DNA of 49,275 nucleotides from Catajapyx aquilonaris (GCA_000934665.2 KZ538763.1:1-49275); one strand, 5' to 3'; numbered from the stretch's first letter, positions 3,576 to 44,800 are shown. The notes: generated from the sequence alone by a model not told the origin. Translations and numbers: made by a program.

Positions 3576-4863
3576 CTGGACCAGGGGAGGAAAAAAAGAA
3601 ACAAAAAGCTTGAAATTCCAGGGATCATGCGCTCCAGGAAAAAGGTACACGTGCCCAAAGAACAAGGCTCCCAGCTCTCTGCGCCAAATATTATTCATAA
3701 TTTACATATCGGGGGGGNNNNNNNNNNGAGGATGCAACTGAATTAGCTCAACTGCAATTCCATCCTCTGCTCTCCCACAGCAGCGCAGTGTTTTAAAGTT
3801 CATCTGCTGCGGAGCTTACTGAATAATGGATTGGGCGTATATAGCCTGCTGCACTTGCTTCCATTTCTATTGCCTGTCAGTCCGGGACGTCCGCACTGTC
3901 CGGGAGTGTCCGGGTTGGCATCAAAAGCTCATTAAGTTGGACAAGGACGGGCCTGTATATACACACTGCTGTGTACGCGTTCACATACACTAATCAATTT
4001 AAAACTGCTCTTCTGCGGGCTCATGTCCTTTGTCATGTGATGTACTCCAAGACGTCATCACACGTAACGACCAATGGGGAGGAAAGGTCTCATCAAAATG
4101 TTTACAATTTCTCTTTAAAATTATTTACAGTAGTTTTTCTGCCACTCGCTCAGAGTCCGATTTAAAAAATCATTACATATCACTAACACGCAATTATCCA
4201 CTGAATTATGCACGATTTTGTGTAAACAAATTAAAGGTGTCGTTACAGCTTCTTAACAATGCAGTAATTTTTAAAGCATAAAAACTGGGAAAATTTGTTG
4301 ATATTGTACTCATAGAAAATGGACATTACTTCTCTCAATTATAACATAATTCGTTCCAGGTTAATTATTCAGCATTGCAAATCGTGTTATTTGCGATTTA
4401 TTTTAATTTGATTTAACTTCAGTAATTTTCACTCTTTCTGCGCTGTTATTAAATTGGATGATTTTTTGAAGAAAAAAAGCAGAATTAGAACCAAGGTATA
4501 GTGTATGAAAACTAATTAGAAAAATGGCAAACAAACCGTAACTCAGAAATTCATTTTTTTTGCAAACCACTTAATTATGCAGTGCATCTTCCTTGATATC
4601 AGGTTGATCGAATGATTCCAATTATTTGGAGTGGTTTCATCTTCTCCGGTTTTCAGTCTTTCAGCACTAGACAGCACACCCAATTCCTTTCGAGGAGAAT
4701 CTTTGACTGAATCAATGAAAGGAAATCAATTTTCCCTAATACTATTTCGGCAGATGAGGATATAAATAGCTATATATTCAAAGCAACAAAAACGAACAAA
4801 AATATCACAGCAATTAACCGATGAGTCAAGTCATCATTATAATCATCATCACAACAATAACCA

Positions 4864-4865
<2 letters not shown>

Positions 4866-4913
<48 letters not shown>
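4866..4913. repeat. (TTA)n microsatellite
   Basis: Perfect trinucleotide run visible in the sequence. Confidence 0.95.
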
Positions 4914-4914
<1 letters not shown>

Positions 4915-7900
4915 AGCTTACAACACCATTTTCGTAAAACTGTACAAAGGCCTTTTGCTGAAGTGTACTTTGGCCACTCTCAATCTTCTCCGTCATTATT
5001 TTCCTTTGTCCTGAGGACGCAAAAAAAACCTTATATTGGAGAGAGAGAAAAAAAGTGTGAGTTATAGTAAGGCCCGATTCCAGTCCTCCAAAAACGGGGC
5101 CATAAATACAATTAGGACCCCGGAATAGTCTGGGCAAAAGGGCAATGATCTCCTGGGCGTCTAAAAATAGATGATTGATTTCCGAGCCTTCCCCAACTTC
5201 CAGCAGAGCATCTATTGACCCGCCGACGTCACCAATTTTGGGAGGAAGAGGGGGCGTGGAGAGAGGAGAGGAAGTGGAGAGAGACGTGGGGGGGGGTCTA
5301 ACCCTTTGGGGGGGAAGAAGGAGGGGGAAGTCTAACTTCCAAATTTATCCCGGTCCTCAAGCGAATTGTTCAAGGGAAGGTATCCATCCACACTGCTACT
5401 AATTTTGAGACAAGTTACTTTGTAATATTACGCTGCAAAAATGTTCAGCCATCATGAGACAAGTGCGAATCTTTCTCCTTAAAGGATTTTTCTCTCCGTC
5501 TGATGTTCGTCCGACCCGATAGTACCGTTACCTCTCGCACGACCTGAAGGTGGCAGGAGTGTACAGACGGAGCCTGCGCCATCTATGTTTCAAGAATAGT
5601 ACTACATGGTAAATCGGTGGGTCATCTCATTATTAAAGTTGTTTAATTGTCACTTTCATTGTGTACTGATTACAAATTTTGCTAAATTTTGGCAACTGCT
5701 TCACTAGTTGTATAATAGTGCAGAATATTAGCAAAGCTACAACGTTTGTATGTTTATTTTGTAAGCTGCTGTATTTTAATAATTTCTTTGCGTATTTACG
5801 TATCACATGTAACATTATGGTCTTTGTAAAGCCTAATTTTCAATTATGATATGACTTTATTACAGCAAGTAATTATGCGCAGTGCTGTGTTATTCTCCCT
5901 TCCTCTCTCCCACCGCCACCTCATCCATTTTGTCAAAAATATGTGGCATATGCAGTCACATTTCCTGATAGGTTTGGGGCATCATCAAATATTCAAAGCT
6001 GGCGTTCACAGTTCAACACACAGAGGACGCAATCGATCAATGGTGGGGGCCAGCCAATTATTGCGAAAATATCAATCCAAGCAGTGCAGTGGCGCGTAAC
6101 TGGGCCCACAATTTTTACGTAAGTGATTATTTTCTCAAACAATTCGCGCCTATAGAAGAACACATGAAAAGGACTGGAACTGCTTGTTATTACGTTTCAT
6201 AACATTAATGTTGGGTACAGCTGCACTGGACAAGCACCAGATTCAAGAAAATTTGTTCACTCCAGCAGCAAATTTTAAAATGAAGCAATTTATGTCAAGT
6301 AATTATTATTGTTCCGAGTGGGTTTGCACTATTTTTTATACGCAACTACTGGTAATTGATAGACAGTTGTAGAGTTAATAGTTCAGATTTTTTGAACCGA
6401 GGCTCGACCACCATCTCGTGGCGAGGAAAACAACAAAGGGGGGTGTGTTTTTGCCTAATTTAATAATCCCGTGTCAGGAAAAGTGATCGTGACCATTGCA
6501 ATTACCGGAACCCGCGATCATCGCGTGTCCCGTAATGGTCCGTAATAGACCCCGGGTCGCTCCTTTTCATCACACTATTATCCCAACGCTCATTTGCAAA
6601 TTTGGCCATTGCAACCTTACATGCTCCGGATTATCAATTACGCAAGAAAAAATTGCGTAACGTCACTATATTTATCTGGGTGTCACACTCGTCCGGTTTC
6701 TGCGACTGCCAGCATGAAATGGTAACCTTTGACCTGAACTTACTGTCAGATTTGGCAGCATGTTTCATCGCAACAAAGCTGCTTATTTTTAAGTCGTTAC
6801 TTTGGTAAGAAATATTAGTTGCGTGTCACCCACATGTGACCTCACCTTGGTCATGTCTCCTGAAGGTCAAGTGCACCATGTGCCACTTCCTATAGTTTTT
6901 AGGCGGCAAAGCGATGTCGCGTGGCAGACAAATTTCTGCCGGTTGTAGTAGTAGTAGTAAAGTAGTAAAGTCAGTGGTAGTAAGTCGGAGTCGTCCTGGA
7001 TTCTATCGCGCAGCCTTAGTCTCTCACTTGTACACTTTATAGTACCCACCCCTCACCCCTTAACCATCGATTTTCACTGGCCAGGAAAACGAGGACAGAA
7101 CTCTCTAGCGACCCTTGGCGACCCTGACTTGGCGGGAAAATATTCCGGTTTTCAAATCTCCAGGTGAGGAATAATTCCACAATTTTTTTAAAAAAAATAA
7201 TAATCCTGGTGCACTGCACGCGGATTTAACAGATTCATTCCGCTACTGTGGATTCCCCCCAGTGAATTCTGACAGGTGGTGCACTGAATGTCCGCCGGTA
7301 AATTCAGTGTGGAGAATTACACACATTGAATTGTGAGATAGACTCATACTAGTCATACCGAATTCCGTCCGGATTTCCTGGATTCCGCCTGAATTCTTCA
7401 GACATTAAAAAAAAACTAATCCAATATTGCGCAAACACCTTGTGCGTTCAATATATGAAATGGTTGCAGTCTTATTTTCCGCAATTATTTTGAGTATCGG
7501 TTCAGGTGTGGATAATGTCTGGCCACAAAATGACGTCACGCCTTTTGTCTTGGGCAGTCAAACACCGGAGTGAAATTAGTCTGGCGAAACTTTTACGGGC
7601 AGTTATTCCTCAGGGTATATATGACGAAAGAAATGATTTTCCTCTCCGGATCAAAGGGTTTTCACACGTTCTCTGAACAATAAACACACACACACACAAA
7701 AAAATTTTTTTGCGACGATAGTGTCCTTCATAATGTTTGGGTTATGGCATGCTACCATGATTTGAACAGTTTGTTCCCAAGATTCTGGTAAGCACTCAGG
7801 GTCCACGGGCCAAAAATCAACTCAGCTATACGTATAAAATATTTAATATTTTAAAGCTACTGTTATATAATTATGTCAAAAAAGTTTCTCTCAAATAATT

Positions 7901-20811: not shown

Positions 20812-23519
20812 TTACTCCAAAAACGGATATTTTGGTTGGTACTTTGGAACCTTTTTCCTGCTGCAGCACCTCTCAAGCACAAAAGCCAGGCAAGACGAAG
20901 TCAACCCGATCAGCCAGGCATAAAATATATTGGCTAACTTTCCCATGGTGACCAAACTTCCCTGGTAAGAATACATGGTTTCGTGATGATCTCGACGAAT
21001 CTTGTAATAATTTCTTAAAAAGTTGGCGTAGTTTATTCGGGACTCCATTTGGGACCAAATGGACATTTCCCACAGACGCATACAAATTGTGTTCGCCATG
21101 ACAAAAAATGTCGAGTCTCGACTGAGAGCCGGTCCCGAGTATATCTGACCAGCGGCAAAGTGTTGCCAAAACAGCAGCTGCACCTTTCCTTTCTCATCCA
21201 TAAAATTATCACGTTCACGATCAAATAACAGATCAGCGGTGAGGCAGGCGAATTCGTCTGTTCTGGCTCGTTCTAGGCAGTCATACATAGTTGGAACCGT
21301 AATTACCTGCTCAAACACAGCATTGAACATATGATCTTCATTATTTTGCAGCACGAGGGACATGGCTACTGTCACTAGCTCTGTTGCTCCCCAGGACATG
21401 TCCGATTCAAATAATTCTTTGAAATTTTGCGGGAGGTTTTCCAATGGTGGGTATGTAATGAACGACACGAGCTTTGACTTGTACAACGTAACTATTACTA
21501 TTGAGAACATTGAGAAAAATACTTTAAAAGTGCGATTTACGGCTGAATCTCGTGGCTGCTCTATTAGGATGCGAGAGAGGTGGGACAGCTGGGTCCCAAA
21601 CGAAGAGAGAATAACCTTGCAACTTTTCCGAGAAGGCTTCCTGTGGCTGTCACTATGCAGGATGTGCAGAAAGAAAGAAGACAAGATCAGTGTGACTAGG
21701 AGCAAGAGCCACATTCCAGGAGAATAAGGTTGGAAAATGAGGTACCACTTGATGTCAGGTAGTGGTGTACGGGTGACAAACCCTGGGGCAAGATAGAAGT
21801 AGGGATAGACCAACCTTGTTGCCCTAAGAGATATATCTGAAAAATAGGTAGCCACTGCCATATCAATCACACCTGCTACCACCTCATAAGATATTCCTGT
21901 AAGGCTACCATTTGGGTGCAATTCATTCAAGCTGAGTTGGTGCTCAACAACCTGTATTACTACATTTAAACACTCCTCCAGAAGCAGCATCCCCTCTTCT
22001 AGAAATGTCATAAATTCATTCTTAATTTTTTTAAACCTCGCCGCCTCCACATCTACGTATTCAAAGTAGCCCACTTTAATTTTCTTCCCATTCATATCTC
22101 GAGGAGGACTAGGAAACAGACTTTGAGTATCGTGTTGGTGGGCATAGTGGAAGGGAGGATTGAGCGAGTCCTCCCCCGCCCTGCAGTAGTAACAGACGGT
22201 GTGAATGATGAGCTTCCTTTCCCTCCGACTGAACCTGGAGAGTGCCTTCAGCCTGATTCCCTTGGCCGGGTCCCCTAGAAGGATCGTTCCTCCAGCATCC
22301 GATGGACCAGTGAGGTGGATGAAGAAAGGGTCGTGGAGGTTCCTGGTGTCCACTAGAGAGGCTGTGGTGATGATGAGTTGTGGCAACTGGGAGGTGTTGG
22401 CGCAGAGGACGAGGGTGAGGGCGCATTGGCCCCCGGGCCAGGCCCTGCCCCTCATCTGGGGAGGCAGGGTCCGGAAGGAGAGGAGGTGCTCAGGTCTCCA
22501 CACCCAGGGGTGGTCACCTGGGTCAAAGGTGAAGGACTCCATCCTGCTGACCACCACGGGTCATCCCCCCTTCCTCTTCTCCCTTCCCTTCCCCTCTCCC
22601 CCTCCCATCGACCAGGCCAGCGTCTCTTGCATGGATGGACCCAGGGAATCAGGGTGGTCCATCCCCACAGACAGGGAACACTCCGGGTAGTGGGTGGTCA
22701 GGACGTCTCGAACTGCTGAGGACAACGCCAAGTCTTCCTCCTTCTTCCACACATCTGTCCCCGTCTGCCCAACCTGAATCAAAACATAAGCATCGCTGTC
22801 ACACTCCGCCTTTCCAATGCTGAACGGGATATGAATTCAGTGTGTTCCAACTCAATTACTAAAATGTCCAATCGTTCCCAATTTTTGCAATTCCGCTTTT
22901 TTTTATTGGCAGTTACGATTAGAAAATGGGAAAAATTACTTACTGACATTACTCTGAATAGAAGCCGTCATTCTGCCCTTGAAATGTGACATATTTCCAA
23001 ACTTTATTACCTTCAAAAAAAGTTTTTTTCGAAACATTTGTCTGACTGCAGGCACTTGCACCGACTTGCGCGAACAAAAATACGGTAAGTAAACTTGCAA
23101 AAGTAACATTCATAGAAAAATCATTATAATATTTTGTAGTAATATTATGTGTTTTTCAGTTAGCCAAGTGCAATCATGTCGTATTTGGACGATTTTTTTG
23201 TAGCAATGATTTATACTTAAACTCCAATGAAGTCGCGTTTAAATGCTTCTTTATTGGGCAAATATAATTAGCACCCTAGTTAGGATAACGGAGGTAACTC
23301 GTCCCTGGCCAAACTAGTTCTTCTCTTCTCGTATATATCAGACAGGTTATCCCCATGCCAGTTACCTGTCAGACAAGGCACAGGGCGACAGGGGTACTTC
23401 CAGCAAGAGATCATCCCTGATAAAAAAAAGGGCCTTACCTCCGGTGGTCTTCCCTTCCCTAGACAGAATAAGCAGGTGACAATCACCCAGCAGAGGAGAA
23501 TCCATGGTAAGAAAGACAT
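20812..23519 (-). CDS. Divergent ionotropic receptor A1; exons 23519-23439 and 22773-20812; single in-frame TGA at 22563-22561
   Basis: Exon 1 is a signal peptide, MSFLPWILLCWVIVTCLFCLGKGRPPE|GTAAGG; phase-0 intron to ttttgattcAG. Exon 2 has S1 (NGSLTGISYEVVAGVIDM), M1 (IFQPYSPGMW), an M3 SYTANLAAF-equivalent (LYKSKLVSFITYP), S2 and M4 (LANIFYAWLIGL). About 680 codons if the TGA is decoded; otherwise a pseudogene. Confidence 0.85.
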
Positions 23520-23645
23520 GATAGTGAAACCACTCCGGCTCCAAGAAGTAACTAGCTCTTACTGGAAGTGCTAAACAGGGTTTATTTTACGTGTCCAAGT
23601 GCACGTGTCATACTTGGATGTTTGCAAATTATTCAACACGCTTCC
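23520..23645 (-). promoter_or_regulatory. Conserved upstream region of IR A1 (homologous to 32660-32788 upstream of A2)
   Basis: Shared blocks TTGAATAATTTG, GTATGACA..ACTTGGAC and CGGAGTGGTTTCACTATC-ATG in both A genes. Confidence 0.55.
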
Positions 23646-24954: not shown

Positions 24955-25688
24955 ATGGAAGGCTGCGGCATGTGGTTGCTTGCAGGCCTCCTCACTCTGG
25001 CCAGAGTTCAGGCTGGGAAAATGGACATAAGTGGAATATTCTTAGTGAAGGCAAAGTGGTCTCTTTCCTGACCTGGCCTCCTAGGGAAACGGTTCCGACC
25101 ACTCTTCCAGAGTTAGCCGATTCCAACTGGAGGGTACAAATGGCGTTCATGGATTATTTAGTTCTTCATCATGTAGCATCCACATCAAACAACACTTTTG
25201 TGAATAAGATATTAGACACTCTCTCTATAGCCGAGAGCCTCCCTCATTGTTTAGACAAAACATTCAGTGAGAAGATAGCTTGTATCGGGCTCAACTGGTT
25301 CATAGATCCGGAACTCTATCGGTACAGGCCAGAGGAAGGTGAGCTTCTTGTTCAGTTCGCTGAGGATAAGATATTTTCTAGATACACATTCGCAGTCTTC
25401 TCCAGAGGAAATGCCCCGTTATTGCACGCTGTCGACAAATATTATATCAGAGTAATGGAAGAAGCCAATCTGTTTCATAAATTTCTCCAAGACGAACGTT
25501 ATGGGAAACTGTTGAAAAATTTGAAAACTATTATTGTATTATGGAAGGCGAGTATTGATCACATAATGGCAGATGAAATTGTGGACGTTTACAAGTTGTC
25601 AGCAGTTTTTAATATGTGGCTTTTGGGTCTGGGGTTCAGTTTCGTAGTTTTTGCTGTGGAAAGTATGAGATGCGTTAAATCTGTATAG
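24955..25688 (+). pseudogene. Ionotropic receptor B0, internally deleted pseudogene
   Basis: Signal peptide MEGCGMWLLAGLLTLARVQAG is fused out of frame, at about 25048-25051, directly to GKVVSFLTWPP (M3). About 1.25 kb is missing relative to B1/B2; the S2-M4 portion is still open. Confidence 0.88.
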
Positions 25689-26619: not shown

Positions 26620-28630
26620 ATGGAAGGCTTCGGCATGTGCTTGCTTGCAGGCGTCCTTACTCTGGCCACAGTTCAGGCTGGGAAAATGGACCCAAACGGA
26701 ATATTTATTGTAAAAGAAGGTGGCGTGAGTGAAGTGGACATGTTGGAGGAGTTGGTTCAACATATACGCTCCAAAGGGAGGATCTGAAGTCGTGTGCTTT
26801 GGTCCTGTCCACAGAATCTGATCCATCTGCAACTACTGTTGGCCTCCATAAAATATTGGCGGGAGACAATCGGACAGGTACCTCCCATCCTTCTCAGTGC
26901 AAATGACCACCTTTCCCCACTCCTTTGGAGTCTACCCGTGGCTGACCAAGCAGGAGGAAATGCTGGACTTCAGGACTGTCCCTCCGGACATCCTGTCCCG
27001 GGTGTGGTCCGGACTGCCCTGCACCCTTCACCTCGTCCTTCCTTCCACTCCTTCTTCCTTCCCACAGCTGCTCATGTTCACCGCCTCTCTGGTCAACATG
27101 TCCCCTGGACAGGACAGGTTCATGGTCCACTTTCAGTCTCCATACAAGACGAGTGAAGTGCACCGAGTGATGACCTCACCACCTGCCAGTGCACTCAGGC
27201 TGAAAGTGTTCACCAGCATGGAATCGGGACAGATTCGGGTGGAGACGGTATGTTTCTTCTGTGGACAAGGTGGACAACCCCACATTCAAAAGCTTGGACA
27301 CGTCCGTAAAGGAAGTAAAATTAATCTAAATCCACTATTGAACAATAACGAGCACGACTTGCACAACAAACGTGTAAGAATTGGTACTTTTTTCAACTTT
27401 GACGTGGAGAAAATTAGGAAATTGAAGCGAGAAAACAGAGAAATGGAGCTAACTTTACTTGAGCGAATGTTCATAACTTGTGAAGAATTATTACATGGGA
27501 TTATTGTTCTTGAATACATGGCCATCAAAGAGGCAACATTTGACTATCGAAATTCAAACGGATCATGGGAAGGACAGACGGGATATATTGTACGGGATCA
27601 AGCAGATGTAATGGCCCTTCACTTTCTCAATGACGACACCCTGCAGTTCCTCTTGAACAGTCCTCCCACCCTGTTCGGTTATGGGACATTTCTAACAAGA
27701 CGACCTCGTGGGATTGTGACTTGGAAGTTCATTTTCGAACCATACGATGGGTCATTTTGGGTTGTGTTTCTATTCACTATTATAGCTTGTGCCGTCTCAC
27801 TTTACATGCTCATCAAGTTTAATCGAAATCGTCCAAAAAACATGACCATATTAGAGTCGATGGGATTGGTCCTCAGAGAAATGGTCGAGCAACCCCACAA
27901 CTATGCCAATGTAATTCCTTTGTTGCTTGCGGTATCGTTTTGTTTCTTCTCAGCAGTGGTCACCTGTGGGTACAAAGGCAAAGTGGTCTCCTTCCTGACC
28001 TGGCCCCCTAGGGAAAAGGTTCCGACCAATCCAAAGGAGCTGGCCGATTCTAATTGGAGAGTGCAAGTGAGCTTGGTTGATTATTTCCTTCTGAAACATG
28101 TCGCATCCTTTTCAAATGACATGTCAATAAGAAAGATTTTAGACACCCTTGAAATTGCCGAAAGTTTGTCGGATTGTCTAGAGAAAACATCGAAGGAGCA
28201 GATAGCATGTGCCGGAATTAATTTGTTTCTGCAGCTAGAGCTGTACCGGTACAAAGGCGATGATGGTCATCTTCGGCTTCAGTTTTCTGAGGAGATAACA
28301 CTCTCTACCTATGCTTTCGCCATTACATCCAGAGCTAATTCGCCGTTAATGCATGCTGTGGAGAAATATTGCGTCCGAATTTTAACAGAAGCCAATCTGG
28401 CTGAAAAATTCTTGCAAGATGAGCTTTACGTGAAGCTTCTTAAAAATCTGAAAGCTGTAATTGACTTGGAAAATATAAACAAAGATCGCGTAAATGAAGA
28501 TGAAATTGTAGATCTTCATAAGATTTCGGCCGTATTTAACATCTGGCTTGTCGGTCTTGGTGTTAGTTGCGTGGCTTTTGTAGTAGAAAATTTCAAAGTT
28601 AGCACACCATGTGAAAGAATGTTCCCATAA
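26620..28630 (+). pseudogene. Ionotropic receptor B1, intronless CDS with two 2-bp insertions near the 5' end
   Basis: ATG at 26620 (MEGFGMCLLAGVLTLATVQAG). Relative to B2 there is an extra TA at 26763-26766 (stop TGA at 26785-26787) and an extra GA at 26863-26866. The downstream 577-aa ORF is uninterrupted, with NGSWEG, IFEPYD, GYKGKVVSFLT and M4 motifs. Confidence 0.85.
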
Positions 28631-29270: not shown

Positions 29271-31281
29271 ATGGAAGGCGTCGGTATGTGCTTGCTTGCA
29301 GGCGTCCTTACTCTGGCCATAGTTCAGGCTGGGAAAATGGACCCAAACGGAATATCTATTGTAAAAGAAGGTGGCGTGAGTGAAGTGGACATGTTGAAGG
29401 ACTTGGTTCAACATACGCTCCAAAGGGAGGATTTGAAGTCGTGTGCTTTGGTCCTGTCCGCAGAATCGGATCCATCTGCAACTACTGTTGGCCTCCATAA
29501 AGTATTGGCGGGACAATCGGACAGGTACCTCCCATCCTTCTCAGTGCAAATGACCACCTTTCCCCACTCCTTCGGAGACTACCCCTGGCTGACCAAGCAG
29601 GAGGAAATGCTGGACTTCAGGACTGTCCCTCCGGACATCCTGTCCCGGGTGTGGTCCGGACTGCCCTGCACCCTTCACCTCATCTTTCCTTCCACTCCTT
29701 CTTCCTTCCCACAGCTGCTCATGTTCACCGCCTCTCTGGTCAACATGTCCCCTGGACAGGACAGGTTCATGGTCCACTTTCAGTCTCCATACAAGACGAG
29801 TGAAGTGCACCGAGTGATGACCTCACCACCTGCCAGTGCACTCAGGCTGAATGTGTTCACCAGCATGGATTCGGGGCAGATTAAAATGGAGACGGTATGT
29901 TTCTTCTGTGGACAAGGTGGACAACCCCACATTCAAAAGCTTGGACACGTCCGTAAAGGAAATAAAGTTAACCTAAATACACTATTGAACAATAACGAGC
30001 ACGACTTGCACAACAAACGTGTAAGAATGGGCACTTTTGTAGAAATTGATGTGGAGAAAATAAGGAAGTTGAAGTTAGAAAGCAGAGAAATTGAACTTAA
30101 TTTTTTTGAGCGATTGTTCATGACCTGTGAAGAATTACTTCATGGAATCATTGTTCTTGAATACGTTGCCATCAAAGAAGCAAGATTAGACTATCGAAAT
30201 GCCAACGGATCATGGGAAGGGCTGACGGGACACCTTGTTCGGGATAAGGTGGATGTAATGTCGATTACCTTCGTTACTGACAAGTCGCTGCAGTTCATCT
30301 TGAATAGTCCACCCACCATGTTCGGGTTTGGAACATTTGTAACAAGACGACCCCATGGGATAGTAACTTGGAAGTTCATTTTCGAACCATACGAATGGTC
30401 CTTTTGGGCTGTGTTTATACTAACTACGTATTATAGCATGTACTTTGGCACTTTTCATGTTCACTAAGACAAATCGAAATGGTTCAAATAACATGGCCAT
30501 ATCGGAGTCAATGGGATTGGTCCTCAGAGAAATGGTCGAGCAACCCCAAAACTATGCCAATGTAATTCCTCTGTTGTTTGCGGTATCGTTTTGTTTCTTC
30601 TCAGCAGTGGTCATCTGTGGGTACAAAGGCAAAGTGGTCTCTTTCCTGACCTGGCCTCCTAGGGAAAAGGTTCCGAGCAATCCAAAGGAGCTGGCCGATT
30701 CTAATTGGCGAATGGAAACCAGCGTTTTCGAATATTTCCTTCTGAAATATATTGCGTCCGGTTCACACGACGCTTCAGTAACGAAAATTTTAGAGACCCT
30801 TGCACTTGCCGAAAGGGTGTCAGATTGTCTGGAAAAAACATCGAAGGAGCAGATAGCATGTGTCGGAGTCAACTTGTATCTGCAGCAAGAGATGTACCGG
30901 TACAGAAGCGATGATGGCCATCTTCGGCTTCAGTTTTCTGAGGAGAATACATTTCCTACTTATGCTTTCGCTGCTACATCCAGAGCTAATTCACCTTTGA
31001 TGTATGCTGTGGAGAAATATTGCGTCCGCATTTTGACAGAAGGCAATCTGGTTGAAAAATTCTTGCAAGATGAGGTTTATATGAAGCTTCTGAGAAACTT
31101 GAAAGCTATTATTGCCTTGGAAAATCTAAACAAAGATCAAGTAAATGCGGACGAAATTGTAGATCTTCACAAGATTTCGGCCGTATTTAACATTTGGCTT
31201 GTCGGACTTGGTGTCAGTTGCGTGGCTTTTGTAATGGAAATTTTCAAATCAAGAGCATCATGTGCAAAAATGCTCCCATAA
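29271..31281 (+). pseudogene. Ionotropic receptor B2, intronless CDS with one 4-bp insertion in M1
   Basis: ATG at 29271 with signal peptide. Open until ACT[ACGT]ATT at about 30425-30430, which shifts the frame relative to B1 (ACT ATT). The remaining 278-aa ORF is collinear with B1. Confidence 0.85.
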
Positions 31282-32659: not shown

Positions 32660-32788
32660 GAAAAGCATTGAATAATTTGTAAATATTCCACGTATGGTAT
32701 GACAAGTCTACTTGGACGTGTAGCTCACTACTATAGGTACTTGCAATAACAGTTTGTTACTCCTTGGTATCGGAGTGGTTTCACTATC
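32660..32788 (+). promoter_or_regulatory. Conserved upstream region of IR A2
   Basis: Same blocks as upstream of A1, with TTGAATAAT at 32668-32676. Confidence 0.55.
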
Positions 32789-35700
32789 ATGTCCTCCTTT
32801 CCATGGCTGCGGCTCTTCTGGGTGATGGTAGCCATCTTCTCTGGAGGGAAAGGAACACCACCACAGGTAAGGTTTCATTGTCATTTTTGTCAAGAATATT
32901 ATCTTTTGAATGTTTCCCTTGGTCTACGTAGTCTGAAAGGTAACTGACGTAGCAGGGTTATAATGAGGGATTCTATTCAACCTAGGTAGCACGTAATTAT
33001 TTGGTAACACATAAAAATAACTCTTCAAAAGTTAGTTCTTGAAAAGAAGCAGGTTAGCAAAAAATAATAATTGCAAATCACTCCAGACATGAAATCTGTC
33101 GGCTTCAGGATTGAATGTGTCATTATTAACATGAAAGAGGATTATGAAACAACTGGCTTCGGCCCGGACCTTTTTCCAATAGCGAATAGTTCCTATTCTG
33201 ACAACCCAATATAATTCTCTGTAATTCGTCTTATTGTGAAGAGATGAAGAATCAATATATGTGACACATGTGACACAATAATATCAAGTTGTGAAAAAAG
33301 AGAGAGAAATTACAAGTTGTGAGTTGATAAAATACTTAGCCAAGATAATTTTAATGGTGGAAAATGACAAGTAAGGCGCAACCAATTAAAATGTTAGATT
33401 CGTGAAAATGCCAATTGAGAGGCACATAAACGAATGTCTTGTGGAAAATACACACAAGCATGCTGTATTGTTTGCGCAACAGAAATAGCTATTACATAGA
33501 TATGCAACGTGCATAGCGAAATGAGTGAAGTAAGTCTCTCAGTGAAAATAGTGGTTCAAATCTGATGGTAAAATGGAATAGTCCCAATGAAAAAAAAGTG
33601 TCAGTGAAGTAACAGTGAAACCCAGTATCAGGAAAACTGATCCAGATCAAGTGACAAGCAGAAACTAGTGAATCGTTAATGGAGTCATTAACGCTGCAAA
33701 ACAATGGTGATGACCGAGTGCCAAAACAAGTTGTTTTTTTCGTGCATGAGTGTGTCCTAGATTGTGCGCATAATATTGCCGGAAATAACACGATAAGAAT
33801 AGTAGACATACATACTGTGAATCGCAACAGACCATTCGAAAACATTTTCTTTTGTGGGTGTGAAGAACAAGTGCCTGTCTGTAATCATTGTTGATTTTGG
33901 TGATAATTTTCGAGGGAAGTAATTTTTTGTAATTTCTTTGAATAAAGGTATGCCTAATAATTGTACTATCCCTATTAGCAAATTCGTGGCAGAAATAGCG
34001 CATTCCTGGAAGTTTTTGTTTTACTCCTGGATTGCGTCATCACTTTAAATTTCGCCACCTTACAGTAATTTTTCCGTAATTGCACCTACCGTACCGCCCC
34101 TAAAATGGTTAGTTGGAACGAACTGTGTTAATGTCCCATTCAGCATGGGGAAAGCAGAGTGTGATGGTGTTGCTTATGTTTTGATTCAGGTGGGGCAGAC
34201 GGGGACCGATGTGTGGAAGAAGGAGGAAGACTTGGCGTTGTCCTCAGCAGTTCGAGACGTCCTGACCACCCACTACCCGGAGTGTTCCCTGTCTGTGGGG
34301 ATGGACCACCCTGATTCCCTGGGTCCATCCATGCAAGAGACGCTGGCCTGGATGATGGGAGGGGGAGAGGGGAAGGGAAGGGAGAAGAGGAAGGGGGGAT
34401 GACCCGTGGTGGTCAGCAGGATGGAGTCCTTCACCTTTGACCCAGGTGACCACCCCTGGGTGTGGAGACCTGAGCACCTCCTCTCCTTCCGGACCCTGCC
34501 TCCCCAGATGAGGGGCAGGGCCTGGCCCGGGGGCCAATGCGCCCTCACCCTCGTCCTCTGCGCCAACACCTCCCTGTTGCCACAACTCATCGTCACCACA
34601 GCCTCTCTAGTGGACACCAGGAACCACCACGACCCTTTCTTCATCCACCTCACTGGTCCATTGGATGGAGGAACGATCCTTCTGGAGGACCCGGCCAAGG
34701 GAATCAGGCTGAAGACACTCTCCAGGTTCAGTCGGAGGGAAAGGAAGCTCTTCATTCACACCGTCTGTTACTACTGCAAGGCGGGGGAGGACTCGCTCAA
34801 TCCTCCCTTCCACTATGCCCACCATCACGATACTCAAAGTCTGTTTCCTAGTCCACCTCGAGACATGAATGGGAAGAAAATTACTTTAGGCTATCTTGAA
34901 CAAATAGATGTGGAAGGGGCGAGGTTAAAAAAGATTAAGGATGAACATGTGACGTTTGTGGAGGATATTATACTTTTGCTAGAGGAAATCTTTAACATAG
35001 TAATAGTGTGTGTTGAGCACAAACTTAATTTTAATGAATTGCACCCCAATGGTAGCCTTGCGGGAATATCACAAGAAGTGGCAACAGGTGTAATTGATAT
35101 TGCAGGCAATGGAATTTTTTCAGATACAGCTCTAAAGGCAACAATGATGGCCCATCCCATCTTTTATACAGGGCCAGGGTTTGCCACCCGGACACCACGA
35201 CCTGACATCAAGTGGTACCTCATTTTCCAGCCTTATTCTCCTACAATGTGGCTCGTGCTGCTCCTCAACCTCATCTTGTCCTCTTTCATTCTGAATATCC
35301 TGCACAGGGACAATCCCATCAGGAAACACTTCCGTAAAAATCCCACGATTGTGCTATTTGTGCATTCGTTTGGGAGCCAGCTGTCCTACCTGTCTCGCAT
35401 CCTACTAGAGCAGCCACGAGATTCAGCCAGAAAATCACGAATCCTCACTTTTAATGCATTTTTCTTAATGTTCTCAACCGTAATAGTTACCTTGTACAAG
35501 TCAAAGCTCGTGTCATTTATTACATATCCGCCACTGGAGAAGCTCCCGCAAGATTTCTATGAATTATTCGAATCAGGCATGTCATGGGGAGCAACAGAGT
35601 TTGCAGTTGTTGTTGCCTCCATCTTGATTCAAAACAGTGAAAATCCGTTATACAAGGATATGTTTGAGCAGGTAATTATAGTTCCAACTATGTACGATTG

Positions 35701-36163
35701 CCTAGAAAGAGCTCGAGTTGACGAATTTGCCTGCATGACAGTCGATCTGTTATTTGATCGAGAATGTGACAGTTTCATGGATGATAAAGGGAAGCTTCAG
35801 ATCCTATTTAGGCATCACTTTCCCTATGGTCAGGCATACACGGGGCCATCTCTCAGTCGAGATGCCATTTACTTTGTCGAAATGAACACAGTTTCTTTGA
35901 AGCTGTTGGAAGGGTCCATTTCATCCCAAATGGAATCGCAAATAAATTACCGCAACTTCTTAAGAAATTACTTCAAAATTCGTCAAGAACATAACAAAAC
36001 CATGTATTCTGAGCAGGGAAGCTTGATCACCATGGGAAAGTTGGCCAATATATTTTATGTCTGGCTGATCGGTTTAACTTCGTCTTCTCTGGTTTTTGCG
36101 CTTGAGGGATGTTGCAGGAAAAAGATGATAAATAACCAGCCCATCTATCCATTTTTGAGATAA
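32789..36163 (+). CDS. Divergent ionotropic receptor A2; exons 32789-32866 and 34190-36163; single in-frame TGA at 34400-34402
   Basis: Exon 1 MSSFPWLRLFWVMVAIFSGGKGTPPQ|GTAAGG (homologous to A1 exon 1, not in the ORF track); phase-0 intron to ttttgattcAG at 34189. Same domain motifs as A1; about 683 codons if the TGA is decoded. Confidence 0.85.
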
Positions 36164-37957: not shown

Positions 37958-40900
37958 TTAATTGGCAAAAGTTTCTCCAAATGGAATCAATATTTCTTTG
38001 AACCTGGAGGCACGTAAACTCATTTCCTTCCAGTCGTCCACATTTGGATCATCCGGACACTCAGAAATCCACACATCTTTGTCAGCAACATTTTCTAGCA
38101 CAATTTTCCTCAAATTATCATTGGCGCTCAGACACCATATTGCCTGGACATCCCTGTGGCCAGAGAGTGTCCGAGTCAACTCCTGAGTTGGTCCAGACAA
38201 AACAGAGACTGTTCCAGATGGAATGTCTGAGTTTTCCGTAAACAAACGACCCAGCTCCAAGACAAGGTGTGGGTTCTGAGAAGGTGCAATGAGGACGACT
38301 GAATTTCCAGAGACTAGTGTCCAGGCCAGTGCGGAAACAATGGCCATTAAGCCACTGTCCACATCAGGACATATGATACCTATTATTCCCACAGGCTCGT
38401 CAAGCATGATTGCAGACAAACCAGGTCCGACCTGTTTATTCCGGCATCCAAAGTTATGCGTACCAGCTCGGAATAAGCACCGAACACACTTGTCCAACTT
38501 ATTGGCCCACTCATCCTGTGAGGTGGCGGAAAAGAGTGAGATCAAGTGGGAAGACTTGTTAGACATAGAGGTGGCCTGGTTGTACATTGCTTTAGATCGG
38601 ACTGCACCCGAGGACTGTGCCCAAGTGGACTTGGTGGCTCCTTCCACAGCGTTACGCACATCCTTTCTGAAATTGTCGTTTCAGTTGAATAACTCTCACT
38701 TGCATTGCCAGTAGTTACTCACCTGGATGCATGTGGCACAAGTGCTATCCTGTCACCTGATAAATTCCGGATTACCCTCCACAGTCCAGATTCAGCAAAC
38801 TTGGTCCCACCTCCGTAGATCATCGGAAATGAGGCCACGCTGCCACTTTGTCCTGGAACCAACACTTCTGGATTCTCCTCCCCCATAATCTCTGGTACAT
38901 ACGTCTGTACTTTTGACATGTAATCCAGAAGCAGGCGCTCCGGACATGATGTCTTGTGATTTATGTGGTGGTTGTTCAGCCACACATTATTTGTCTGGAA
39001 TATATGCAACGGTTCATTAGTTGTAGTGAGACTGTAAGTGCTTAGAAAACACAGCTTGTGGACAATCACATGCAACAAAACGTAGTGTCTCATGCCAAAT
39101 CCAAATGAGACAAGATTTTATGCTAACGATTACAATTTTTGGTAACCGACATATTTACAAAGTCTTTTAAAAAGTGTGCAATTTTCTGAAAATATACATG
39201 CAAAAAATAAATTAGGGAGTACCCAATCAGCTCAGTGATGCAAAATATTTCGCTGACCATTTTGCGCTTACTTTATTTTGGACTAGAGGAACAGTAAAAA
39301 AAATCTGTATCAAAATGTTGAGATGTCTTGAGAGGAGATTAACTACAATTGTCATGAGTATGATTATACCTTGAGAACTCCGGCTAATTCCATCCCAGGA
39401 CTGATATCTTCACTCCAAACGCTGATTCCACAATATCTTTTGCCCCCACTGTTGGCTAAATTGGCAGCTTCCTTGATTGTCCTAAACGGCAATACAACCA
39501 GCAACTGTCCTGTTTGGCACTGAGAGACTCGGCTGGCCGGTTGCGCCCCAATAATTAACGTTGGCGGAACAAAATCACCGCTCTCTCCGGAACACGCAGC
39601 CTGGACTACCTGCAAAATGATAATTTTAGTATTATGAATTAAATTGTGTAAATATGTAAAGCACACATGTATGGATCATGTACATGGCAGCAAGGAAACT
39701 GAACTAGGACCAGACTTGGGTCACTACTTGCAATAAACTACTGCACTACTGTGCGGAAAACAAAAGGACGATCTGACGTCATCATCACACAACAATATGA
39801 GTGAACAGTGTCAACAAAATGAACATATTGTTTACTCCTATTGTTGCATGAGAACGGAACAGAATGATGACGTCAGAGAGCCGTTTCGTTTTTTTTTCCG
39901 CAGCCACGAACCTTGACACCTTCTGATTCTGCTTCCTTCAGAATCTCCATAACATCGCGAGGATTGCAGCAGCCTGCAACGGACACATCTTGGTTCTTAT
40001 CTTTAAGCGGTCCCACTCTCAGCGAAGACACTTTGGCTTCCAGCCGACTGATGACTTTTCCTGATATGCTTTGCTGTACATAGATGTCCACTCCCATAGC
40101 CCCATGGCAGAGGGAGTCAACAAGGGTATCACAAGCCGAGTCGATATCTGCGGATTCCAGCACAACAGCAGCACTCTTGTACTTGCGCTCTGTTGGCAAA
40201 AAATAATAATTAAGGTACAATTACAGGAAATCTTTTATTGCGTCTACTTACCAATCACCACATTTCCAATTGCGGCCAGCTCAGCAGTGTACTGTGCTGA
40301 CCCGAAGACACTGATTTGGTTGGCTATTTGGAAGTTTGGTCTCTCTTGTGTCACAAGAACACTTATTACTCCAGAAGGAATCCTGATATGATCAATAAGT
40401 CACTCGTTAGCTACAGCAAAACAGTGCATGTGCTTTCAGTAGCATTGTTTCCTACACGGGACAGCTGAATTACAGACGCATACACTCACCCTGCCTCCTT
40501 ACACAGGTCGGCCAAAAGAAAGGATGAGAGACATGCCAATCTGGGCGGCACAATGACAATCCCATTTCCTGCCACCAAAGCCGCAACCAAACGATGCGCC
40601 AGGGAAAACACAGGTGAACTCTCTTCGCTGGACAAAACAACCACTCCGAGTGCCCTCCGCTTCCTCTCCCGGAATGACTCGCAAGTCTCCGCCCAAGACA
40701 CTCCCTCATACAAGGCAGCAACTAAGTCTGGCACATCCAAACGAGTCCTGTGGAAGGCACGGCCAGACTCCACACTTGCGGTGGACGCCAGAAGGGATGA
40801 ATGGCGCTCAACAGTGCGGGCCAACCTGTAACGACCTGCGTGAGCGAATGTGGTTACACTTCGGCTGACACGGTGACGAACCTGTGCATATGCCGTCCCA

Positions 40901-41869: not shown

Positions 41870-44800
41870 ATAAATAAGTGGCTCTGCTTGTGAACTCTCA
41901 AACACCTTTGGGTTTGATATTTTTTCTGGCAATGGGGGCAATTAAATAGTTTCTCCTCGAGGTGGGTTTCCAAATGTTCTTTCATGTCGCTTTTCTGACA
42001 AAACCTTCTCTGGCAAACTGGACAGCTAAATGGCAGTTCTCCCCAGTGTGTGTTCTGATATGCATTTTCAAATTATGTGCGCATCGAGACCTTCTCTGGC
42101 ATATGGGACAACTGAAGGGTCTTTCTCCCGTATGCGTCTTCATATGCCTATTCAAATGTCCGGCTTGGACGAATTTTTTTTTTGCATACATTGCAACAAA
42201 ACGGCATATCACCTGTGTGCCTTTTCATGTGAGCTATCAAAGAATATGCACTTCTCAAATTTTTCTGGCACACTTGGCATGTATAGCATGCCTTCCTTTC
42301 TGCTTCTGTCTTCCGTTCACCATGCACATGTGAGTCATTCTTCTCACAACCGTCATAAGCTCTCTTCTGCCTTTCCTGAAAAGTTAACAGCAATATGCAC
42401 CATTTTATCTTGTAGAGTAGATGTTTACAAAATTATAAACTAGTGGGAAACACTACATTTTAAAAACATATAGCTGCAACGTGTGTGAATTGCATTCATG
42501 TTCGAACAATAACATCTGTCATGATTACACATAGGCCTAGTTGTTATAGAGCAGGTTACTTGAAACAAACCTGTTTCGGAATATTCGCATTTGGCCGTCT
42601 CACAGTGTGTGCCAAAAAGTCGTTCTCATTTGCTTTGGCCAGTTGGAGCACACGCCATTATTACAAAGCTGTTTTAAGAAAAGGTCCTTTTCTCCATCAT
42701 GATTTTACAGACATGATTTTACAGACATGATTTTACCTGAGACAGTTGGTCGGAGAAATGTTCCTTCAAGATATGCTCCTCAATTACTTCTCGGTCTGGA
42801 AATAGCTTCCCGCAATGATCACACATGAGGATCCTGTCCAGAGACATGTCTGGATCCTTCTGCTGCTAAAAACAATGAGTTTAATTATTCATACTGATCA
42901 TAAACAGCAGTGTCGCCCACACTATATTATATCCAAAAATAAGTTACACCGTAAGCATGGGGGTAAGTGGAACCCAAGGGCAAAATAATATCAAACTGAA
43001 AAGTGTGTCCTGGGTGCAATGTGCCGGGGAACAATGTAAACGACTGGTGCAGCCAAGTGCTGCTAGGGCAGTTCATCATTCGCGCTAATGTTATGTAGAT
43101 AATATCATTATTTGTTCAATAAAATTATTTGAAATGCTTTCTGTCATTTCCCCTTGGCACTGCATCATTTTTGGACAGTTATTTGGGTAGTTCAGGGCTG
43201 GGGTCCACTTACCTCACATTTCAGGGCAAGTGGGACCCAGAGTCACCTACCATCTCTATTCCTGATGCACTTGGAGTGGTGTCCTGCTTTGAGTTTGTTT
43301 TCCTGTAACTCCTCAGAAATCTTCTAATTCGAGCCTCCTCCTCTGCATTCAGGATTAATCTTTCAGTGGCACACTTAGCAATTGAATGGCTTTCCCCACT
43401 GTGTGTCCTCACCTGGGCTCTCGAATAATGATTTCCCCGACCAAATCTTTTAGGGCAAAATTTGTAGCTGTATGACTTCTCCCCAGTGTGTCTTCTAGCC
43501 TTCAAATCATAATCCGTATCAAACCTTTTATGACATGTTGGACAATTGAATGGTTTCTCTCCAGAATGAGTTTTCATGTTATTAATAATAATAATTTTTC
43601 TAGCATATGTTAATATCTTCTGGCACTTATTGCAATCAAGTGGCACATCCCCTCTGTGCAATAATTTCATGTGAGATTTCCAATTATATGCACTAATCAA
43701 ATGTTTATGGCACACCTGGCATGCATATGCCTCCCTTTCTTCTTCTATCTTCCTTCCACTTTGCAAGCGAATGATTTCATTTGCATCATGAGCTCTCCAT
43801 TGTTGTCCCTGTGAAATGAGTAGCAAAATAAATAATTGTCACCTAGTAGTACCGTATACCAACATTTGCCAATATTGAAATAGTGATGACTTATAGGCCT
43901 AAGGAAACATACTTTTTCCCCCCAAACAGTATTGTAGCACATCTAGTTTTTTTGATGTGATTTTACAGAACATCATTATTTTTACCTTGAGTTGTTCGGA
44001 AGATTGTTCCTTCAAGATATGCTCCCCACTTTCTTCTCTTTCCAGAAAGTGTTTCCAACAGTGCTCACAGAGGAGAATCCGCTGCAGCTCTATGTCGAGA
44101 TCTTTAGTCTGCTAAAAACACAATTGTAATTCACAATGATGATATTACCACAACTTGTGACTTTTTACAAAAGATTCATTCACAGCATGCAGTATGTAAT
44201 CTGACATAATTATGATATTAGCAAATATTCATAATCATGAGTGCAGGTTCGTTTTTTACTTGCTCATTGTTTGACTGTAGACACACAGCATCAATAATTC
44301 TACAAGTATAAACTTGGCACTCCATGTAACTAATCAAACACGTATAACTATTCAATAATAAGAAGTTCGTGCCAAAAATAATTATTTTTCGACATGTAAT
44401 TTCCCTTAGAACGCACTCTTTTATTAAGAAGCATTTTAAAAATAGTTCCTTTGATATGATTCCACAAATCAACTTTTTACCTTTAGTTGTTTGGAGACAT
44501 GTTCCCTCAGGATATGCTGCTCAATTTCTTCTCGAGTAGAAAGTAATTTCCCGCAGTAAGCACAGAGGAGGACATTGTGGAGGGACATGCCGAGATCCTT
44601 CTGCTGACAAAAAGACCGATTTCAATTAGTCAAGAAGATCATATCACCATATCTCGCCACTTTTTACAACAGATTTCACTCACAAGCATGCATATCTATT
44701 ACCATGGATTCATGAAACCTGTACTGGGAGAATCATTTTGATGAACAAATCACCGCAATAAATTTTAAAAAATGTTAAACAATGCCAAGAGAATATATTT

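Follow-up and report, generated by a model that had tools for sequence, protein, structure and literature searches.

Conserved programmed stop-codon readthrough in arthropods, including the UGA-C / UGA-CUAG class, has reportedly been described by Jungreis et al., and the Ir75a gene of Drosophila sechellia is said to have been introduced as a 'pseudo-pseudogene' by Prieto-Godino et al. (2016, Nature 539:93). In its programmed form, arthropod readthrough extends a complete protein at the normal stop, and this stop is kept across species. Catalogues of arthropod readthrough exist (PMC13278127), and further sources state that readthrough at UGACNN reaches up to ~3% in mammalian cells, with UGA-C being the weakest stop context (PMC5829715), that in flies it is the neurons which show the highest readthrough of premature stops (PMC7244557) and that Ir75a is a precedent among ionotropic receptors (IRs) for readthrough of a premature stop (PMC5615767). 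Of the 2,424 mostly intronless IRs described from the dipluran Campodea augens, no fewer than 901 (37%) have been found to be pseudogenes; most of these carry a single lesion, and the authors read them as young (PMC6938034).

Here, we compare these systems with two genes, A1 and A2, that lie in a 49,275-nucleotide stretch of Catajapyx aquilonaris DNA (GCA_000934665.2 KZ538763.1:1-49275; this whole analysed stretch is referred to as the window) and show one single interruption each, a TGA followed by CCC in the long exon 2. As Ir75a is described in PMC5615767 and PMC7244557, it resembles A1 and A2 in being an IR gene with one premature stop, an intact frame and presumed neuronal expression; in case of Ir75a, however, experiments have demonstrated both that the stop is translated through and that the receptor works, whereas A1 and A2 are known from sequence alone, and unlike Ir75a the present stop is absent in relatives and has clearly dead neighbours that look equally 'intact'. 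With programmed arthropod readthrough, A1 and A2 share the UGA followed by C, but their stop cuts into the frame at codon 97 of ~680, and relatives lack it. The young single-lesion IR pseudogenes of early-branching hexapods and the cockroach, Campodea augens among them (PMC6938034), are similar to A1 and A2 in their place within a clustered array of divergent IRs: the single disabling mutation per copy, the open frame and the fast turnover of the Campodea arrays are also seen here, with neighbours carrying frameshifts and deletions. In contrast to what is described for Campodea, a 0.7-kb gene-conversion tract spanning the lesion accounts here for its presence in both inverted paralogues, and the A genes have a separate signal-peptide exon.

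Between ~20.8 and 36.2 kb of the window, a single divergent receptor family is present in five copies. A1 (-) and A2 (+) are arranged head to head, inverted relative to each other and ~9-12 kb apart, with B3, B1 and B2 (+) in between. The features of the two A genes are as follows:

32789..32866, plus strand: A2 exon 1, ATG and 26 codons, signal-peptide-like MSSFPWLRLFWVMVAIFSGGKGTPPQ, donor CAG/GTAAGG
32867..34189, plus strand: A2 intron, 1323 nt, phase 0, 3' end ttgattcag
from 34190, plus strand: A2 exon 2, ttgattcag then G
34190..34882, plus strand: A2 side of the gene-conversion tract, start of exon 2, 97.7% identity to A1
34357..34399, plus strand: A2 polypurine (GA-rich) tract, 43 nt, encoding GGGEGKGREKRKGG
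34400..34402, plus strand: A2 in-frame TGA, codon 97, CCC next
34403..36163, plus strand: A2 open frame past the stop, 586 codons and terminal stop, ligand-gated channel region
34478..34507, plus strand: A2 CT-rich tract ending in CAG, a 3' splice site lookalike whose putative use skips 318 nt
23439..23519, minus strand: A1 exon 1, ATG at the 23519 side, 27 codons, signal-peptide-like MSFLPWILLCWVIVTCLFCLGKGRPPE, donor GAG/GTAAGG
22774..23438, minus strand: A1 intron, 665 nt, phase 0
from 22773, minus strand: A1 exon 2, ttgattcag then G
22078..22773, minus strand: A1 side of the gene-conversion tract, compared with A2
22561..22563, minus strand: A1 in-frame TGA, codon 98, CCC next
20812..22560, minus strand: A1 open frame past the stop, 582 codons and terminal stop

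In both genes a GT..AG intron of phase 0 separates the signal-peptide exon from the long exon 2. The first exons were located by searching for ATG...GT segments with a hydrophobic core, and the signal peptide call is a Kyte-Doolittle heuristic rather than the output of a dedicated predictor: the 9-residue maxima lie between 2.8 and 3.1 in the exon 1 cores of A1 and A2, and the B2 N-terminus is hydrophobic too. The two first exons are homologous (the 23 nt that end with the ATG identical, one 3-bp indel, donor conserved), and both A1 and A2 retain exon 1 with its donor as well as the 5' flank; the A2 splice sites reach a donor score of 8 of 9 and an acceptor pyrimidine fraction of 0.71. As an alternative start of A2, the ATG at 34145 (ATT in A1) was rejected, given the homologous signal-peptide exons upstream and the position of this stretch at the 3' end of the intron. 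A preliminary description had proposed these gene models with their ATG, signal-peptide exon, in-phase splice sites and stops at codons 97 and 98, and rebuilding them led to the same result. Its count of about 580 uninterrupted codons past the stop agrees with the 586 (A2) and 582 (A1) codons found here, and the UGA-C context that it noted can be read directly from the sequence at 34400-34402 on the plus strand and at 22563-22561 on the minus strand. Apart from the TGA, neither A1 nor A2 has a stop or frameshift in ~1750 bp. This codon is common to A1 and A2 by descent or by copying: two independent nonsense hits are not credible.

The assignment of the A/B family to the divergent IRs is one of transitive homology, for which the case is good. 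The Pfam family PF00060 (Lig_chan) was matched by all three long ORFs (A2 25.7, A1 22.9 and B1 24.2 bits), none of which reached the cut-off of 30.8. A profile built from the A and B copies retrieved 2224 proteins at E <= 0.001 and 13 at <= 1e-30 from a library of 1.84 billion proteins, with a springtail Orchesella protein as the top match, named in its source as an ionotropic glutamate receptor C-terminal domain protein. Five of the six full-length profile matches scanned pass the Lig_chan cut-off, and it is because of these profile relatives that we regard the family as divergent IRs. PF10613 (S1/S2 ligand-binding domain) was not detected in the A or B copies and is below cut-off in three of the six full-length relatives scanned. 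Word searches found no protein at E <= 1e-5 with the 586-aa A2 frame and none at E <= 0.001 among shorter proteins with residues 20-260, and from a metagenome scan with the N-terminal alignment 207 pattern stretches were obtained, 0 of which were confirmed by tblastn.

That the stop is internal had been suggested from the alignment of the upstream peptide with the B-family N-terminus, and this holds: the peptide 5' of the stop aligns as described, with a sense residue at the stop column. This column reads L in B1, B2 and P0084, K in P0010 and M in P0037, whose gene model starts with this residue; P0010, P0084 and P0037 are metagenome-derived fragments from the profile search that were aligned with B2, and among A-type sequences P0010 comes closest, with 46% identity over 170 columns. 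The column is flanked by the motif [RH][YH]-x-P, and the Met seven residues on is invariant. All relatives that cover the column (4/4) have a sense or start codon there. Directly before the TGA, an insert of ~10 codons is present in A1 and A2 only (absent in 4/4 relatives), which forms part of the 43-nt polypurine tract at 34357-34399. Since relatives carry a sense residue at that column, the TGA is, as judged from this alignment, internal and derived.

Comparison of A1 and A2 reveals two very different levels of divergence within exon 2. At the exon start, 16 differences and one 3-bp indel were counted in 693 bp (97.7% identical), whilst from 34883 to the exon end 283 of 1260 bases differ (77.5% identical): the homogenised tract begins exactly at the exon 2 boundary and ends at ~34882. 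This abrupt switch within one exon is the likeness to interlocus gene conversion between inverted paralogues (concerted evolution), and the lesion, which is disabling relative to the intact relatives, lies inside the sharp-bordered tract; donor copy and direction of transfer are not readable from two sequences. Outside the tract, dS is 0.53, dN 0.21 and omega 0.39, and all of the A1/A2 indels, exon 1 included, are multiples of 3 (6/6). This divergence, omega and indel pattern mark A1 and A2 as an old pair that was under purifying selection. The preliminary description had taken the diverged yet lesion-free 3' regions as a sign of selection; this stands for past selection, and it does not stand for selection after the origin of the stop, in view of the conversion tract and of the B1/B2 control described below. 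As the stop sits in the tract that was copied later, the intact diverged 3' regions are most readily understood as a record of selection that preceded the conversion now placing the stop in both copies.

Within the tract, the TGA lies in a 222-bp island that is free of A1/A2 differences. When 16 events are placed randomly, such an interval around the TGA has P = 0.018 and any gap as long has P = 0.032, whilst a fixed split of the tract into zone I and zone II shows no significant difference in divergence (Fisher P 0.07). This island suggests that the stop region was homogenised last, via a more recent and shorter conversion over the TGA, which would leave little time and lead one to expect few further lesions; the point estimate of the time since homogenisation is nil for the island, given its zero divergence. 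The differences in the tract that postdate conversion comprise 11 nonsynonymous (N) and 5 synonymous (S) changes, and the tract part 3' of the TGA accounts for 9 N and 3 S (omega 0.92). With just 16 differences, the ratio of 11:5 is compatible both with omega 0.39 (P 0.21) and with omega 1 (P 0.32), and the changes after conversion appear to fit neutrality slightly better without rejecting anything. Approximately 4.1% of random substitutions in the A1 and A2 frames create a stop, and for a TGA of the same age as the entire tract (2.3% divergence), ~1.7 new stops would be expected over both copies, with frameshifts extra. The probability of zero lesions would then be estimated at ~0.003-0.2, a range that involves an assumed rather than measured indel rate.

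An internal control is provided by the remaining family copies in the window, all of which (3/3: B1, B2 and B3) are disrupted:

24955..25688, plus strand: B3, internal deletion, B2 residues 1-32 (signal-peptide region) abut B1 residues 375-582 (C-terminal third)
26620..28630, plus strand: B1, two 2-bp insertions (26762 and 26863), first 77 codons out of frame
29271..31281, plus strand: B2, contiguous signal peptide intact, frame-shifting 4-bp insertion at 30425

In spite of their frameshifts, B1 and B2 show an omega of 0.40 at a dS of 0.25 when compared with each other, with no further stop or frameshift, and thus an omega below 1 together with an open frame is here no sign of current function. 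Their identity is a mosaic similar to that of the A genes, ranging from 100% to 73% per 100 bp. One lesion, an otherwise open frame and an omega of ~0.4 are, on the evidence of these neighbours, the look of a young pseudogene in this cluster.

We consider it probable that the shared TGA is a null mutation which gene conversion carried from one paralogue to the other, and that A1 and A2 are young dead genes in a decaying cluster. A1 and A2 would be old head-to-head duplicates of a two-exon divergent IR gene, and purifying selection would have maintained both through most of their history. The TGA would have arisen in one copy, beside the lineage-specific GA-rich insert in a poorly conserved N-terminal linker, and gene conversion (non-reciprocal recombination) that homogenised the first 0.7 kb of exon 2 would have moved it into the other copy. 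The outcome would be young single-lesion pseudogenes or null alleles in a five-copy cluster under birth-and-death turnover, with full-length A1 or A2 protein made only through the basal leak of the UGA-C stop. Direction and timing of the copying, as well as the loss of function of A1 and A2, are what we infer from this pattern. A recent null mutation copied by gene conversion had been named in the preliminary description as the alternative to its main proposal, and it is this alternative that fits best (16/693 versus 283/1260 differences).

The surroundings of the stop were also analysed for signs of recoding. Both copies show the UGA-C context, and the sequence reads TGA CCC GTG, in which the extended CUAG-type motif, the longer form belonging to the leaky readthrough context, is absent after the stop. 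RNA folding of the 91 nt 3' of the stop gave a z of -0.48, with 52 of 200 shuffles folding at least as well, and the 201 nt around the stop showed no excess stability over shuffles (z +0.36). An Rfam search of the whole window returned no family, SECIS included, at gathering score, and the relatives show L or K, and no Cys or Trp, at the UGA column. Neither the combination that marks programmed readthrough (a stop conserved in relatives and a stimulatory downstream structure) nor that which marks a selenoprotein (a 3' UTR SECIS, with homologues having Cys at the UGA) was found. An intron inside exon 2 spanning the stop was rejected as well: 87 in-frame GT..AG pairs introduce no new stop, and none of them has both a good donor and a good acceptor. 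Strong pairs within exon 2 arise only via 34190, which is the exon 2 start and not a donor, so that this candidate collapses into the use of an alternative acceptor.

Dependence on readthrough, the main proposal of the preliminary description, would imply that sensory neurons decode the UGA-C often enough to supply full-length A1 and A2 and that selection keeps the downstream frames. The leaky context in both copies (PMC5829715) and the precedent set by D. sechellia Ir75a and other fly receptors (PMC5615767 and PMC7244557) are in line with such a role, as are the position of the stop within a linker of low complexity, which should accommodate whatever residue is inserted, and the intact state of exon 1, splice sites and ~580 downstream codons in A1 and A2. 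Its main point is the missing second lesion, which is mildly to clearly surprising if the TGA is as old as the tract. Set against this, the intact diverged 3' regions are older than the conversion tract that carries the stop, the frameshifted B1 and B2 equal the A genes in omega and openness, the stop is absent in 4/4 relatives, CUAG-type motif and downstream structure are both lacking and the changes past the stop within the tract stand at 9 N to 3 S. Functional readthrough is hence possible but unlikely in our estimation, and the proposal gained no positive support: the tract, B1/B2, the relatives and the absent structure all point against it.

Bypass of the stop by splicing would join the exon 1 donor to the acceptor-like site at 34507/34508 (A1: 22456/22455), removing 318 nt including the TGA in frame and yielding a putative receptor that lacks 106 N-terminal residues. 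The CT-rich tract and its CAG/ATG score like the real acceptor (pyrimidine fraction 0.76 versus 0.71), and of the acceptor-like sites past the stop it is the first to keep the frame of exon 1; however, the same crude rule finds six such sites in exon 2, two of them in frame, and the CT-rich tract also encodes the conserved LSFRTLPPQ with the family-conserved FRT.PP motif. In addition, the skipped part includes columns without any variation across the 6-sequence alignment (M93, F96, F115, T117 and P119), and B2, P0010, P0084 and P0037 read the stretch as continuous coding sequence, leaving splicing bypass as a very unlikely explanation. Other forms of recoding, namely A-to-I editing of UGA to UGG or insertion of selenocysteine, would both use the UGA codon, and IRs are neuronal, with ADAR editing being most active in neurons. 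Nevertheless, the site is no more structured than its shuffles over 201 nt, a SECIS is missing at gathering score from the 49-kb window and relatives have Leu or Lys rather than Cys or Trp at the column, which makes either route highly improbable. We give just as little credence to functional truncated products, whether a secreted N-terminal peptide of 96 residues or a receptor whose translation restarts at the Met seven codons past the stop. The ATG at 34424-34426 (M93 in P0001 numbering) follows soon after the stop and is invariant in the family alignment, and exon 1 encodes a signal-peptide-like sequence, but a receptor started at M93 would presumably lack the signal peptide needed to export its N-terminal domain of ~300 residues. 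The 96-residue peptide, in turn, has a C-terminal tail of low complexity, and no free-standing homologue emerged from the search: the short profile matches come from a metagenome-derived catalogue, in which short length is no proof of a small gene.

With spread of a null mutation by gene conversion as the preferred reading, A1 and A2 would represent a clean and ordinary case of chemoreceptor turnover, in which old selected duplicates had their 5' coding ends repeatedly homogenised and came to carry one null in both. The two genes also offer a caution: one stop in an otherwise intact gene with a dN/dS below 1 is no proof of function when this stop lies in a conversion tract, and the frameshifted B1 and B2 share the same signature in the same cluster. 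There is a small chance that A1 and A2 are instead readthrough-gated IRs of an early-branching hexapod, with the UGA-C in a disordered N-terminal linker being decoded in sensory neurons and kept by gene conversion. If this were true, 'pseudo-pseudogenes' and neuron-specific receptor readthrough would reach well outside Drosophila and the flies, and some of the very many single-lesion 'pseudogenes' of expanded IR families might be functional as well, which would bear on how the fractions of 30-40% pseudogenes reported for such families are counted.

The presence of the TGA in sequencing reads could be established in part. Four DNA runs of one sample contain the stretch, and a fifth run, from another sample, matches 3 of 30 bins with the gene not covered. 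Contigs from public DNA reads (3 runs, one sample) cover 34400-34402 with TGA as the only letter listed; these contigs are mosaics of A1- and A2-type letters from which rare variants are dropped and may derive from the assembled sample itself, so that they prove the presence of the TGA and not the absence of a sense allele. A dispersed repeat is located in the A2 intron at ~33975-34066, where contig depth rises to 4-6x that of the flanks and many loose ends are seen.

Over 34208-34824, within the conversion tract at the start of exon 2 that carries the TGA common to the paralogous divergent ionotropic-receptor (IR) genes A1 and A2, the contigs built from public DNA reads (three runs of one sample) were found to be mosaics: A1-type letters only were present in all three runs at 34352/3, 34575, 34592 and 34751, the runs disagreed among themselves at 34626-34686, and contig depth over 34208-34824 reached only ~1.1-1.3x that of a single copy. 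The assembly's separation of A1 from A2 within 34208-34824 is to be taken as provisional. Since loose contig ends at 34883 and 35038 are A1-like, with at least one base different from A1, and since 10-11 contigs per run display 90-95% likeness, the genome may, on this hint, contain a second haplotype or additional A-type paralogues at other places.

Ahead of their start codons, A2 and A1 are still alignable over 90 nt at ~75-80% (32700-32790 versus 23520-23610 on the reverse strand), and the two 5' flanks exhibit a run of 23 identical bases that closes with the ATG: judged from sequence, a core promoter or 5' UTR common to both genes may have been kept in each. A short stretch of high depth was detected within the A2 intron:

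33975-34066, A2 intron: contig depth 4-6x that of the flanks

This stretch is probably a dispersed repeat. The contigs covering it show many loose ends and small indels, and it is the sole place near A2 touched by run X5, which derives from another sample.

The B-type copies of the same IR family are all broken (3/3), each by a different lesion:

24955-25688, forward strand: B3, internal deletion, ~340 codons
26620-28630, forward strand: B1, two 2-bp insertions
29271-31281, forward strand: B2, one 4-bp insertion

Identity between B1 and B2 is itself a mosaic: per 100 bp it ranges from 100% down to 73%. This pattern suggests that repeated gene conversion has taken place between these two copies as well.

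Three other open frames were identified in the window:

4826-5344, reverse strand: 16 consecutive Asn codons, a low-complexity repeat
37958-38680, reverse strand: aldehyde dehydrogenase domain (Pfam Aldedh, E 2.6e-16)
43221-43838, reverse strand: C2H2 zinc fingers (zf-H2C2_2, E 2.7e-14)

The Aldedh match spans profile positions 29-210 of 461, and this frame is probably a single exon of a multi-exon gene adjoining the IR cluster.
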